64,000 nt of DNA from an uncultured cyanobacterium (GCA_963744145.1 CAVUSO010000001.1:2080001-2144000), one strand, 5' to 3'. Positions 44,713 to 57,909 are shown, counted from the stretch's first letter. Notes: generated by a model from the sequence alone, not told the origin. A program made the numbers and translations.

Positions 44713-46394
44713 TTATTTATTGCCTGTTAATAAAGCTTGGGATGCTGATTCACCCGCAATCCGAATTTTTTGGGTTAATTTAATGCTAAATAAACTCAAA
44801 ATTGGCAAAAACATAAAAACATGATGACCATGAGGGTAGCTGTTGTCCATAATACTTGATTTTTTGTTTTCATCAATAGCATTATTTGAGCAATTACAGC
44901 GTAGATCAAAATTGCTATCCCTAAGGAACCCATACAAATTATGGCTTGAGTTTTATCCTGACTTTCGGTGCCAATTAAAATGTAGAATAAGGTGGGGATA
45001 ATCGCGATGATCAAATTAATTGCGATCGCTAAAATTGCCGGACTTTTTTCACCCCACAACAAATCTGAGACGATCGACTGTTTCCACCACTTTTGACCAA
45101 TTGATTTTTGCTGATACCTAGCCCAATCCTGTAAGCTTTGACGCTGAGGTGAGAGCATCATAATTAGCCCCAAAAACATCAGCAGATTTACAACTAAGAA
45201 AGGTAAATCGCTTAAGTGACTTCTTCCGAGGTAGAAAAATCCGAGGATGATTATTTCAAAACAAGCGACAAACAAATAACTTTGTCTTTTATTAAAAATA
45301 GTCGCTTCTGAATTGCGAAAGCAACGTAATAATCCCAGCCAAATCCACCCAGTCCAACAAATATAATTACCTAGGATTAGACTAGCTAAAATGACAATAT
45401 TCTGACCAATCGGTAAGTCAAACCATTGCCATTCTAATAAACTTTTATAGGAAAAATATAATTCTCCTATAGAGGAAAAATGTCCTTTATCTATTTCTAC
45501 TACATATTGTGAGTGAAACGCCATATATGGAATATATACCGTAGGATAAAATAAATTAAACCAGTCGGTTACCTGATGATTAATTGGCTGATTAGAGCTA
45601 GACAATGTTTGGGATGTAAATCCCAACAAAGTTAAAACTAAACCACTTCCTAACCAGGATTGAAATCCATTTAACCCAGAACTAACTAGCCCAAATAACA
45701 TGGCAGCACTATAGAAAAAGAGGCAACTAGCAGCTAAAATCCCATAGAAACTGAAAATTATCCAGACTGGAATTTGGGCTGATAAACCAGCACATAGATG
45801 TAAGGGGATCGTGAGAATAATTCCCCAATAAAGTAAACTCGGAACTCCTAGTAATTTTCCCACAAAAATTTTATAGGTTGACTGGGGACTGAGTCTAATA
45901 AAATTCAGAGTTCCTCGACGTTCTTCTTGAGTAATATCGTTGATTAGTAGATAAATACCGATCGTTAATAAAGCAAACACACTAATAAAGCTCAACCACA
46001 GAAAGATATCGAACCACCAGTGAGACCACTCAATAGTGGGATGTCCATTTGTCAGTAAACATTCCCGACTGATATTAGATCCTGTTGGTGGTGGTGGTGG
46101 TGGTGGTAAATGCCGTAAATATTCCCGACTGATACTGGGTGGTGGTGCAGGCAAATTCCGAACCCTGGAAACACTGTGTGATACATAATGGAAACTTAAG
46201 TAATTATCAGGATTGCAATCATTTCCTATCAAATAGCCATATAATTTAGTCCAAAAAGATAAAATGGTGTAGATTTGACTAAATAAGGATATCCCCGTGG
46301 CGATCGCGACGGAATTCCGATTCAACCGACCTTTAATTTCTCGGTATAACTGAGGGTTCCAGTTAGCAATTTTTTCGAGCCACAGTAGATTCAT
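44713..46394 (-). pseudogene. ABC-2-like permease paralog A4 (Pro-rich loop), C-terminally damaged
   Basis: 532-aa ORF 44796-46394; an 8-bp ATGTTTTT duplication shifts the frame and ~135 bp is missing versus paralogs; the normal C-terminus is in another frame. Confidence 0.8.
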
Positions 46395-46403
46395 GTTATT
46401 TAC

Positions 46404-47849
46404 CTATTTTTCCATTAACAGATTTTTAGAACCTGATTCACCTAAAATCTGAATTTGTTGAGTTAACTTCACACTCAATAAACTCAAAACACTTAACTGA
46501 CCAAGCAAACATAGCAATATAGTCATTCCTCCCACCTTTGAGATTTCCACTAAAGGAAAAGCCGATAGCAACCAAACCGCAGGATATTCGTCTGGATTAA
46601 CAGATAATAATGAAAAGAGCATCAGTGGTAAAAACATAATTACCATCAAGGTGATGCTTGCCCAATTTTGCAAACTTTGGCACTGAGATTATAGAATTAT
46701 AATTACACCAAAAAACAGGCATAGATGGAAAATTACTAAAGGAACATAACGAAAATAATTATTAGAGAAAGAAAGATAACCATTATCCCCATAGTAAACT
46801 ATTCCCAAAGAGTAAAACACCATCACTATGATGCTAACATAAGCAACAAAAAAATAACTTTTTTGTTTATTCAATATCGTCGTGCCTAGATGACGAAAGC
46901 ACTTTACTAATCCTACCCAACTCCACCCAGTGCATAAAACATAATTGCCTAACATCAGACTAGCTAAAATGATACTGTTATGAATGAGTGGTAAATCAAA
47001 CGATTTAGGAATATGGGAGATATGAAAACGGATGAATCGTTCTATGTGATAAATAAAGACATTAGGAAAAAACAAATTAAACAAATTAAGATAGAACAAA
47101 TTTTCATCAGGCTCATAAGGAGCAGCGACCAAAGATCTAGTGTAAGTCGATGTGAGATACAATGAAAATAAAACTAAGCCACTTCCTAACCAAGGTTGAA
47201 ATCCATTTAACCAAGAACTAGCTAGCCCAAATAACATTGCTCCACTATAGAAACAGATACAACTAGTCGCCAAAATCCCATAGAAACAGAGAATTAAGCC
47301 CACTGGGATTTGAGCAGTTATCCCAGTCAATAGATGTAAAGGAATCGCGAGCATTACTCCTAAATAAAGTAAACTAGGAACCCCTAATAATTTGCCGATC
47401 AAAGTTGTTGGTGTTGATTGAGGACTAAGTTTAATAAAAGTGAGAGTTCCTCGACGTTCTTCCTGTACTAGATCATTAATTAATAAATAAGTGCCGATCG
47501 TTAATAAAGCAAACACCAGGATTAAGCTTAAGCAAGGAAAAAGAAGATCTAAGCACCAGTAAGACCAATCAATCGTGGGATAACCATCCTTCAACCAACA
47601 TTCAACGTTATAAAAATTTTCGGGATAACGAAAGCGTAAATATTGATATTGACTACAGTCATATTTCCCATTATCCAACGGTTTAATCTCACCAGGTAAT
47701 TTGCTCCAGGCAAATAAAACTACCAGAATTTGCACAAATATGGATATCCCGATGGCGATCGCGACGGAATTCCGATTCAACCGACCTTTAATTTCTCGGT
47801 ATAATTGGGGATTCCAGTTAGCGATTTTTTCGCTCCAGATTAGATTCAT
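46404..47849 (-). pseudogene. ABC-2-like permease paralog B2, interrupted
   Basis: TCA>TAA at 46689-46691 plus a 270-bp in-frame deletion relative to B1. Confidence 0.82.
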
Positions 47850-56921: not shown

Positions 56922-56961
56922 TCATGATCTCCTTGAAAAAAAAGTATTGGCGATCGCAATT

Positions 56962-57909
56962 TTATGAAGCTTGTTGATGTCCCATTTTCAAGAAAATTGT
57001 CTCTAAGTCTTCTTGAGTCGGATAAAATTGAGTAATTTCTATCCCCGAGGTAATCAGCGATCGCAGTAAAGCTACACTATCTTCTGATGTTCCTGAAAAA
57101 TGCACTCGTAATTTTTGATCGGGTAATATCTCCATACTTTCAACCAAGGGATGTTTGTTTAATTCAGCTTGTAATATTTCTATGCTACCCAAGCTAGATA
57201 AAATAATTTGCTGACGACTAAGACGATGGTAAAGTTCTGCTAATTTAGCACTTTCCACCAAATATCCTAGTTCCATAATCCCGATCGAAGTACATAATTC
57301 AGCTAAATCACTCAAAACGTGAGAAGAGATCAGAATCGTCATCCCAGCTTCTTGTAAAGTTTTGATAATTTCGCGAAACTGCATTCTCGCGATCGGATCT
57401 AACCCCGAAACTGGTTCATCTAGCAATAACACGATCGGTTGATGGACAATAGTTCTCCCTAAACTGAGACGTTGTTTCATCCCTCGTGATAAGGTAGAAA
57501 TCTGACTATTACGCTTGTTAGTTAACTGGACTAATTCTAAAACTTCATATAGACGTTGGGTGCGTAAGGGGTCTTTTAACTGATAAAGACGGGCAAAATA
57601 ATCAAGATAGTCCCAAACTGTGAGATCATCATAGACTGGAAAATCATCGGGTAAATAGCCAATCCGTCGTTTTAAAGTGGGATTATTGCGATCGCGGATT
57701 AACCGTTCTCCATTTATGTAAATTTCCCCAATGGTCGGTTCTTCCGCAGTCGCTAACATCCGGATTAGAGTGGTTTTCCCAGCTCCATTGGGACCAATCA
57801 GTCCGTAGACTTCTCCTGTTTCTATTTGTAAATCAACATCGTGAACAGCAATATGTCGGTCAAATTGCTTAGTTAAACCCCTTGTATCGATCGCTAATTC
57901 TTTTGCCAT
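56962..57909 (-). CDS. ABC transporter ATP-binding protein (ABC-2/DrrA-like)
   Basis: GPNGAGKTT, LSRGMKQR, LLLDEP.SGLDP, ISSH. Confidence 0.95.
   Translation of the reverse strand: MAKELAIDTRGLTKQFDRHIAVHDVDLQIETGEVYGLIGPNGAGKTTLIRMLATAEEPTIGEIYINGERLIRDRNNPTLKRRIGYLPDDFPVYDDLTVWDYLDYFARLYQLKDPLRTQRLYEVLELVQLTNKRNSQISTLSRGMKQRLSLGRTIVHQPIVLLLDEPVSGLDPIARMQFREIIKTLQEAGMTILISSHVLSDLAELCTSIGIMELGYLVESAKLAELYHRLSRQQIILSSLGSIEILQAELNKHPLVESMEILPDQKLRVHFSGTSEDSVALLRSLITSGIEITQFYPTQEDLETIFLKMGHQQAS

Follow-up and report, generated by a model that had tools for sequence, protein, structure and literature searches.

A tandem array of permease genes behind a single ABC ATPase in a cyanobacterium: a probable type V exporter amplified in place

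Rv1217c-Rv1218c of Mycobacterium tuberculosis (PDB 8K1M) is an ATP-binding cassette (ABC) transporter in which two transmembrane domains (TMDs) are fused in one chain and its nucleotide-binding domains (NBDs) associate into a homodimer; Rv1217c binds two NBDs by itself, and its periplasmic gate is made up of the loops that join the first to the second helix in each TMD (PMC11406275). The system has one permease per ATPase, and the part of that account drawn on here makes no mention of paralog arrays. A second precedent is MsmX of Bacillus subtilis and its relatives, described in the portion of the source used as multitask ATPases that serve several membrane modules (PMC7658222). Here we describe a locus within 64,000 nt of DNA from an uncultured cyanobacterium (GCA_963744145.1, CAVUSO010000001.1:2080001-2144000; this whole stretch is called the window, and positions are counted from its first letter), in which one ABC ATPase gene is followed by a tandem array of seven permease paralogs and a stub.

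We suggest that the locus is a conserved, uncharacterised cyanobacterial type V ABC exporter whose permease has been amplified in place, reshuffled and partly deleted, and we regard this as the probable explanation. A working pump would consist of the separately encoded ATPase, expected as a homodimer, together with one chain of ~520-620 aa that carries two ABC-2-like TMDs. Because all five intact permease units (P0, A1, A2 and the fused B1 and A3) keep the interface helix and both coupling regions, they likely assemble with the same ATPase; docking of each of them on one and the same ATPase dimer through these elements seems to us reasonably likely, and would give as many as five isoforms of the pump, distinguished by their periplasmic gate and outer face. 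A ratio of one permease to two ATPases is suggested by the two conserved coupling regions and by the frequency of loci with a single permease (51 of 78); we infer this stoichiometry, as we do the direction of export, the sharing of the ATPase and any functional differences between the copies.

Gene order, ATPase and predicted fold of the permeases

The locus runs on the minus strand from 57909 to 44713 and comprises, in the order of transcription, the ATPase, P0, A1, a B stub, A2, the fusion B1~A3, B2 (broken) and A4 (broken). The initial annotation had reported one ATPase with seven permease paralogs in this order, and every element is found at its place; the N-terminal and coupling motifs and the cysteine-bounded loops that it quoted are likewise present in the translations and the protein alignment. 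The ATPase (56962..57909, minus strand, 315 aa) is the sole ATPase gene at the locus. It matches Pfam PF00005 (E 5.1e-32) and has intact Walker A, signature-like LSRGM, Walker B and H-loop motifs, and is 66-81% identical to the upstream ATPases of the 29 other loci aligned. Its match to DrrA1-3_C (E 1.8e-4) falls below the cut-off, its best NCBIfam model is TIGR01188 drrA with 225.8 bits (cut-off 312.45), and TIGR03522 GldA gives 190.5 bits (cut-off 402.6). Since the protein scores below both curated cut-offs, membership in the GldA/GldF/GldG gliding transporter or in DrrAB was rejected; on these motifs and scores it is an ordinary ABC NBD, nearest to the DrrA/GldA/NatA-like groups.

All the permease genes lie on the same strand as the ATPase. 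P0 (55365..56921, 518 aa) is intact and belongs to the ancient 'short-loop' subfamily; its first extracytoplasmic loop (ECL1) reads C-IRRIGIE-C. A1 (53439..55127, 562 aa) and A2 (51551..53365, 604 aa) are intact A-type permeases, with an ECL1 of C-TVYNYLRSYHLPQKIYETE-C in A1 and a long, Pro-rich ECL1 with three Cys in A2. The fusion B1~A3 is a single open reading frame (ORF) of 1139 aa (47991..51410), in which both the B1 unit (51410..49695) and the A3 unit (49679..47991) are of full length. B2 (46404..47849) and A4 (44713..46394) are B-type and A-type pseudogenes: the frame of B2 (47849..46689) halts after 386 aa, with a remnant continuing to 46404, and that of A4 (46394..44796) is followed by an out-of-frame C-terminus down to 44713.

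None of the seven permease ORFs or remnants matched an ABC family or an ABC2_membrane model of Pfam at E <= 0.01, and none of the six compared with NCBIfam matched an ABC family at that threshold; the sole library match among the permease ORFs was a sub-threshold one to Ycf4, and PF12730 or PF12679 was precomputed in just 7 of 120 listed permease relatives. A 50-member family profile run against all PDB chain sequences found no ABC chain up to E 10, its single match being a spurious one to an unrelated acetyltransferase (E 0.021). The ESM Atlas search returned nothing but cyanobacterial 'hypothetical protein' clusters, and a profile-profile comparison of the N-terminal with the C-terminal half (hhalign) found no repeat, with a probability of 0.5%.

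The fold was approached through an AlphaFold2 model of A1, which has a predicted local distance difference test (pLDDT) score of 90.5 and a predicted template-modelling (pTM) score of 0.90. Residues 7-325 of the model superpose on type V ABC TMDs; the N-terminal TMD has the type V order of interface helix, transmembrane helix 1 (TM1), ECL1, TM2, coupling helix, TM3-5, re-entrant helices and TM6, and a second type V TMD follows in the same polypeptide. An unbiased structure search with the model through 48,161 chains returned the same type V families, and the whole chain aligned co-linearly with Rv1217c (8k1m_B) over 431 residues. Based on the type V superposition, this co-linear alignment and the fused-TMD architecture of Rv1217c, we read each permease chain as a complete TMD1-TMD2 unit of 12 helices in pseudo-dimer packing.

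A topology map was drawn from the A1 model and the type V helix order. In this map the interface helices occupy A1 residues 1-25, and ECL1, the first variable loop of the initial annotation, residues 49-94 between TM1 and TM2. Coupling helix 1 (EERRGTLNFIRLSP) follows at 133-157, between TM2 and TM3-5; ECL3 with the re-entrant helices, corresponding to the second loop of the initial annotation, spans 238-294, between TM3-5 and TM6; and a third variable patch, ECL1', lies at 349-355, between TM7 and TM8. Coupling region 2 (SPQRQ..DWARY..WGEKSPA) extends over 375-413 after TM8, and C-terminal to it come TM9-12 and then a cytoplasmic tail. Lys and Arg occur preferentially in the segments proposed to be cytoplasmic, and the disulfide-type Cys pair of ECL1 is conserved, 40 of 46 relatives having exactly two Cys there. 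Together with the fold itself, this fits a placement of the variable loops outside the cytoplasm, facing the periplasm or the thylakoid lumen; an extracytoplasmic position, on which the initial annotation depended, is what the A1 model predicts for them.

Variation among the copies

The cytoplasmic coupling motifs were described in the initial annotation as nearly constant, and this agrees with the comparison of A1 and A2: the fraction of identical residues reaches 1.00 in the interface helices, and 0.92 and 0.95 in coupling helices 1 and 2, respectively, as against 0.28 in ECL1 and 0.29 in ECL1'. Where two variable loops had been noted, there are three, ECL1, ECL3 and ECL1', and nowhere else in the proteins of the family is conservation so low or are indels so frequent. 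Family-wide, the frequency of the top residue is 0.24-0.31 in these loops vs 0.39-0.79 elsewhere (the exception to the latter range being the two-residue turn between TM9 and TM10, at 0.36), and the length of ECL1 varies from 4 to 172 residues. Given this low conservation throughout the family, the outward face is weakly constrained everywhere. The ECL1 of A4 contains a (CCA)7 run, seen as a TGG repeat of 7.3 units at 46086-46107, and that of A2 a degenerate triplet repeat at 53037-53073; by these tracts, the length of ECL1 shifts through triplet slippage.

The closest partner of an A gene changes along its length. In ECL1, A1 pairs with A3 (92-94%) and A2 with A4 (84-96%); in ECL3, A2 is closest to A4, around ECL1' A1 is closest to A4, and in the last third of the genes A1, A2 and A3 group together against A4. 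Over 269 polymorphic sites, a runs test gave p <= 0.005 in five of the six A pairs. Read from these alignments, the A copies are mosaics, which we attribute to recombination or gene conversion.

Nei-Gojobori counts were used to compare dN/dS (the ratio of nonsynonymous to synonymous change) between outward residues (49-94, 178-181, 238-294, 349-355, 436-437 and 495-520) and the rest of the protein, gapped columns being dropped. The outward and remaining values are 0.69 and 0.36 for A1-A3, 0.75 and 0.47 for A1-A2, and 0.78 and 0.52 for A2-A3, and a one-sided Fisher test for a ratio above one gave p 0.85-0.92 for these three intact A pairs. Three further duplicate pairs, the only ones with at least 55% identity among 86 loci screened, gave outward values of 1.38 (L058, 83% identical; p 0.20), 0.82 (L045) and 0.70 (L051), with 0.48, 0.24 and 0.31 for the rest; the L058 copies differ within the Cys loop, ECL3, ECL1' and EH'. 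Single regional values above one, such as 3.15 for loop 2 of A3-A4, were not taken as evidence, as this value involves 1.5 synonymous differences.

The diversifying selection proposed in the initial annotation is thus not supported, as the outward dN/dS is never significantly above one and the loops in question are the least conserved in the family. Relaxed constraint and gene conversion are enough for the loop pattern, and positive selection is not demonstrated in the alignable parts. Outside the loops, the values of 0.36-0.52 among A1, A2 and A3 point to purifying selection and hence to genes that are not dead; the intact A copies have clearly been under such selection since their duplication.

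Origin, decay and surroundings of the array

Fifteen families of direct repeats, with 60-100% identity and spacings of 1.5-1.9 kb and 3.4-3.6 kb, run through the locus, a repeat structure far above chance expectation; A1 compared with the whole 7.7-Mb genome gave 13 matches, all inside this locus. A FastTree phylogeny was built from 93 rows, made up of every third stored homologue of 480-680 aa (86) and seven rows from the window. The family splits into a P0-type and an A-type subfamily (node value 100*). The A subfamily contains all six A/B copies, grouped in a single clade apart from its other members (100*), and P0 falls in the other subfamily; on this tree the A/B copies are a lineage-specific expansion.

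Traces of how the array arose are found in the spacers. Downstream of the stops of A2, A3 and A4, about 42 nt are shared in the flank alignment, consisting of an 11-nt gap and, in reverse complement, the final ~28 nt of sucD, the convergent neighbour on the plus strand (43799..44701; CoA_binding and Ligase_CoA in Pfam). Past this relic, A4 continues into the real sucD, and A2 and A3 into a leader of ~100 nt of a B copy. The relic opens the A2-to-B1 spacer (51411..51550, repeat family D12), and it is also present in the A3-to-B2 spacer (47850..47990), which belongs to the same repeat family and is 98% identical to 44674-44802; there it creates a spurious plus-strand ORF with a sucD-like ending (47701..47979). 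The presence of the sucD tail at A-to-B junctions indicates that the tandem duplication was made in place. We propose that an A-type gene was amplified by tandem duplication and unequal crossing-over into an alternating A/B array. In this history an old P0/A split would have been followed by the A/B split (dS, synonymous divergence, ~0.6-1.0), then by block duplications (~0.07-0.3), with conversion and deletions coming last; among the A copies dS is 0.07-0.14, and between A and B ~0.6.

Losses are equally legible. The A1-A2 spacer (53366..53438, 73 nt) encodes the last ~20 B-type codons with a stop, as the initial annotation had noticed in calling it a B stub; its layout is 12 nt of the common A 3' flank, a 63-nt B-type gene end including TAG, 9 nt, and the A2 start. 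As the spacer fuses an A flank to a B gene end, a whole B copy (B0) has been deleted here, the stub being its scar. Aligned with B1 at the nucleotide level, B2 has an in-frame 270-nt deletion at 46664/46665, predicted from the model to take out coupling helix 2 and about TM9-TM10, and a TAA at 46689-46691. Compared with A2 and A3, A4 has suffered a deletion of net 127 nt at 44804-44814, adjoining a duplicated 8-nt stretch (AAAAACAT twice, at 44807-44822), resulting in a frameshift; its last 30 codons survive in the other frame. Three copies, B0, B2 and A4, are therefore decaying. B1 and A3 are read as a single ORF because the stop position of B1, which is TAG in B2 and the stub, reads CAG; the two are joined by a four-residue linker, QVNN. 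The accordion-like history put forward in the initial annotation is borne out on both sides, the gains by the duplications with their sucD relics, and the losses by the stub of B0 and by the deletions in B2 and A4.

The reliability of the assembly was considered at the neighbouring leuB (58940-60026), whose frame is split at residues 255/256 of the orthologue by a 1-nt insertion within 59640-59760; the extra base lies inside GCCGTCGGCA, outside any homopolymer. Either leuB, an essential biosynthetic gene, is truly frameshifted or the assembly is wrong at this point, so that single-base features of the locus deserve a re-check. Among the sequencing runs, none of RNA was listed as containing the locus and a single one of DNA was, X1, a soil metagenome in short contigs and possibly the source sample. 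In X1, copy-specific stretches were matched with 0-1 differences, and one record (record 2, 46635-47017) covers both B2 lesions with 0 differing letters.

The P0-A1 spacer (55128..55364, 237 nt) has no open frame. It holds, at about 55204-55321, a partly palindromic ~117-nt dispersed repeat with a self reverse-complement match; the element has 87 matches in its own genome, some clustered ~280-310 nt apart (as at C1:4232701-4234410 and C1:7497508-7499060), and looks like a MITE-like or REP-like dispersed repeat (miniature inverted-repeat transposable element or repetitive extragenic palindrome). This repeat accounts for a depth spike (46.9) with loose ends in X1 at 55237-55321. An Rfam scan of the locus matched no family, and neither promoter-like sites (47 vs 48.1 expected in shuffled sequence) nor terminator-like sites (5 vs 10.6) were in excess. 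A mobile-element or defence-island setting was rejected, since the flanking genes are housekeeping genes. Two genes of the Uma2 family (putative restriction-endonuclease-like) lie near the locus, at 38780-39418 and 58039-58914, the latter directly upstream of the ATPase, where it separates the ATPase from leuB; elsewhere leuB abuts the ATPase. Beside sucC, an ORF of 611 aa (40361-42196) that matches nothing in Pfam contains Gln-rich repeats and a single predicted membrane segment, and farther away a DnaB helicase gene (27652-29430) carries an intein (an Intein_splicing domain inside DnaB_C).

Distribution, competing explanations and comparison with known systems

A word-indexed search gave 1064 proteins at E <= 1e-3 among the 8000 candidates scored, and a further search matched 665 representatives at 50% clustering. 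Among genome contigs, 696 of 701 pattern matches encode relatives when an alignment-derived query is used, and a contig search with A1 alone as query found no related loci. The family is almost entirely cyanobacterial; members were named from Microcoleus, Hormoscilla, Symploca, Oscillatoria, Fischerella, Nostoc, Crocosphaera, Waterburya and others, and are annotated as 'hypothetical protein' or 'ABC transporter permease'. The best relative of P0 outside the locus is 48% identical to it. A match is present in 36 of 41 genomes (40 relatives and the window's own) and in 99 of 301 sampled genomes of Cyanobacteriota; two families of the class, including small genomes of 1.7-2.7 Mb, had none (0 of 13 and 0 of 8). 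Our literature search found no described cyanobacterial member, and no functional names occur among the homologues.

In 70 of 78 loci an ATPase match (>55% identity) lies within the locus, adjoining the permease genes in the rows listed, and many loci are flanked by sucC/sucD and leuB, as in the window. Full-length permeases number one in 51 of these loci, two in 25, four in one (L053) and none in one; the counting script merged neighbouring genes in L040 and L051. Other multi-copy loci are G038, with three permeases, and L040, with at least three, and the seven copies and stub described here form the largest array among the loci examined. In another genome two recently duplicated permeases are joined end to end in a 1003-aa protein (P0122), whose second unit lacks the Cys loop, and in L051 two full copies are separated by a 185-aa permease fragment; fusion and decay thus recur among tandem copies in the family. 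A locus labelled 'Actinomycetota bacterium MAG69' (L065) contains sucC, sucD, two permeases, an ATPase 79% identical to that of the window, and leuB, and is probably a mis-binned cyanobacterial contig. At least nine genomes, mostly of genus g33 (G032, G089, G095, G175, G183, G214, G240 and G314, with G197 of another genus), have permease orthologues with one or two in-frame TGA codons in a full-length match, which could reflect a shared stop near the end, a pseudogene or recoding.

In the explanation that we favour, the differences between the loops would come from weak constraint, indels, triplet slippage and patchy conversion. It is possible, though we hold it to be unlikely, that the paralogs have instead been kept because each offers a different periplasmic gate and outer face on a common motor, so as to widen the range of substrates or partners or to evade toxins or phage proteins that use exposed loops; amplification, deletion and conversion would then be means of diversification. 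The concentration of variation on the outward side, with the ATPase-contact elements constant, would agree with this, as would the same pattern in three independent duplicate pairs (outward dN/dS 1.38, 0.82 and 0.70 in L058, L045 and L051 vs 0.24-0.48 elsewhere), the purifying selection on the intact A copies, the triplet repeats that change loop length, and the role of the equivalent Rv1217c loops as a periplasmic gate in the portion of that study available (PMC11406275). However, even the best case, L058, does not exceed one significantly (p 0.20), and because the same loops, with an ECL1 of 4-172 residues, are the least constrained throughout the family, neutral drift explains their pattern. 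In addition, three of the eight copies are dead, the loops would face the periplasm or thylakoid lumen, away from the cell surface, and no defence, toxin or mobile genes flank the locus. At a still lower probability, we speculate that the locus is a system with a constant motor and variable gates, a conserved ATPase dimer served by a tandem library of two-TMD permeases, in which the gate loops (the Cys-bounded ECL1, ECL3 and ECL1') would set substrate, partner or toxin susceptibility, and unequal crossing-over, conversion and slippage would keep creating, shuffling and deleting gate variants. If this were true, the array would be an inner-membrane analogue of variable surface-protein arrays, recurring independently in cyanobacterial lineages (this genome, L045, L051 and L058).

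Slightly less probable to us than adaptive retention is that the array is a relic of dosage amplification under neutral birth and death, or of pure drift, in which P0 and perhaps one A copy matter today. The broken stub, B2 and A4, the lost stop codon of B1, the sufficiency of a single permease in 51 of 78 loci and the near-neutral outward dN/dS would all be expected in this case; against it, A1, A2, B1 and A3 keep frames of 562-604 codons despite a dS that is 0.07-0.14 within the A group and ~0.6 when A is compared with B, and a dN/dS of 0.36-0.52 outside the loops is unexpected for dead genes. We consider it very improbable that two permease chains pair on each ATPase dimer, with P0 as the constant partner of alternative A or B chains. 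P0-type and A-type genes do occur together in several individually examined loci, two full-length copies are present in 25 of 78 loci (with the subfamily untyped), and paralogs are naturally fused end to end, as B1~A3 here and P0122 elsewhere; but a single permease is found in most loci, two loci (G036 and G005) have two A-type copies and no adjacent P0, and the chain alone models as a two-TMD pseudo-dimer, as in Rv1217c to the extent that its description was available. Amplification in place of a type V exporter permease has its own difficulties: the B1~A3 fusion may be non-functional, the B1 stop loss and the B2 TAA are single-base features of one assembly and could be errors, and the short contigs of X1 neither bridge nor collapse the array.

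The wider interest lies in the family as much as in the array. Neither Pfam nor NCBIfam has a model for the family, none of its relatives has been solved, and we found no published function; it is present in about one third of the sampled genomes of the phylum; being uncharacterised, yet accompanied by an ATPase of 66-81% identity in a syntenic core position, the ATPase-permease family is suggested by these sequences to serve an envelope export function that is important and unstudied. With its seven copies, the array amounts to a natural experiment in which the motor interface is kept and the outer face varied; it marks the parts that probably set specificity, and supplies ready-made chimeras for functional studies. 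Tandem amplification is also seen here in textbook form, with duplication junctions, conversion tracts and copy decay readable from the sequence.

The initial annotation spoke of an undescribed system. This holds for the protein family, which is uncharacterised, but not for the type V fold or for the layout of a fused two-TMD permease with a separate ATPase, both known from the part of the Rv1217c-Rv1218c account used here (PMC11406275); nor does it hold for the presence of an array as such, since other cyanobacteria commonly have one to four permeases in tandem behind this ATPase. What is new is the extreme in-place amplification to seven copies with a legible history, in a type of machine that is already known.

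Rv1217c-Rv1218c is the only solved transporter with this layout among the structures returned. As far as the consulted sections of its description go, the two systems share the type V fold, both TMDs in one chain of ~530-550 aa and a separate ATPase gene of ~310 aa, and the gate loops of Rv1217c correspond to the variable ECL1 and ECL1' of the cyanobacterial permeases. They differ in that the 50-member profile detects no sequence similarity between them, and in an overall root-mean-square deviation of 12.9 A, which arises because the two TMDs are differently placed relative to each other; unlike Rv1217c, members of the cyanobacterial family carry a Cys pair in an ECL1 whose length varies greatly, and their second coupling region is long and conserved. 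With the single-TMD type V transporters NosFY, ABCG2/ABCG5-G8, ABCA1/A4, PmtCD, Wzm-Wzt and TarGH the permeases share the TMD fold of both halves, the N-terminal amphipathic helix, the coupling helix after TM2, the re-entrant helices between TM5 and TM6, and an ATPase of the DrrA/GldA/NatA-like group. In those transporters, however, the TMDs are separate or fused to an NBD, whereas here TMD1 and TMD2 are fused without one; the permeases of the window also stand apart in matching none of the ABC2_membrane models of Pfam. The likeness to MsmX lies in one ATPase serving several membrane modules, a sharing that is presumed here; from what the available part of the source says of them, MsmX systems are type I importers with unlinked permease operons, whereas the locus described here encodes an exporter-type fold, with its permeases in tandem behind the ATPase.

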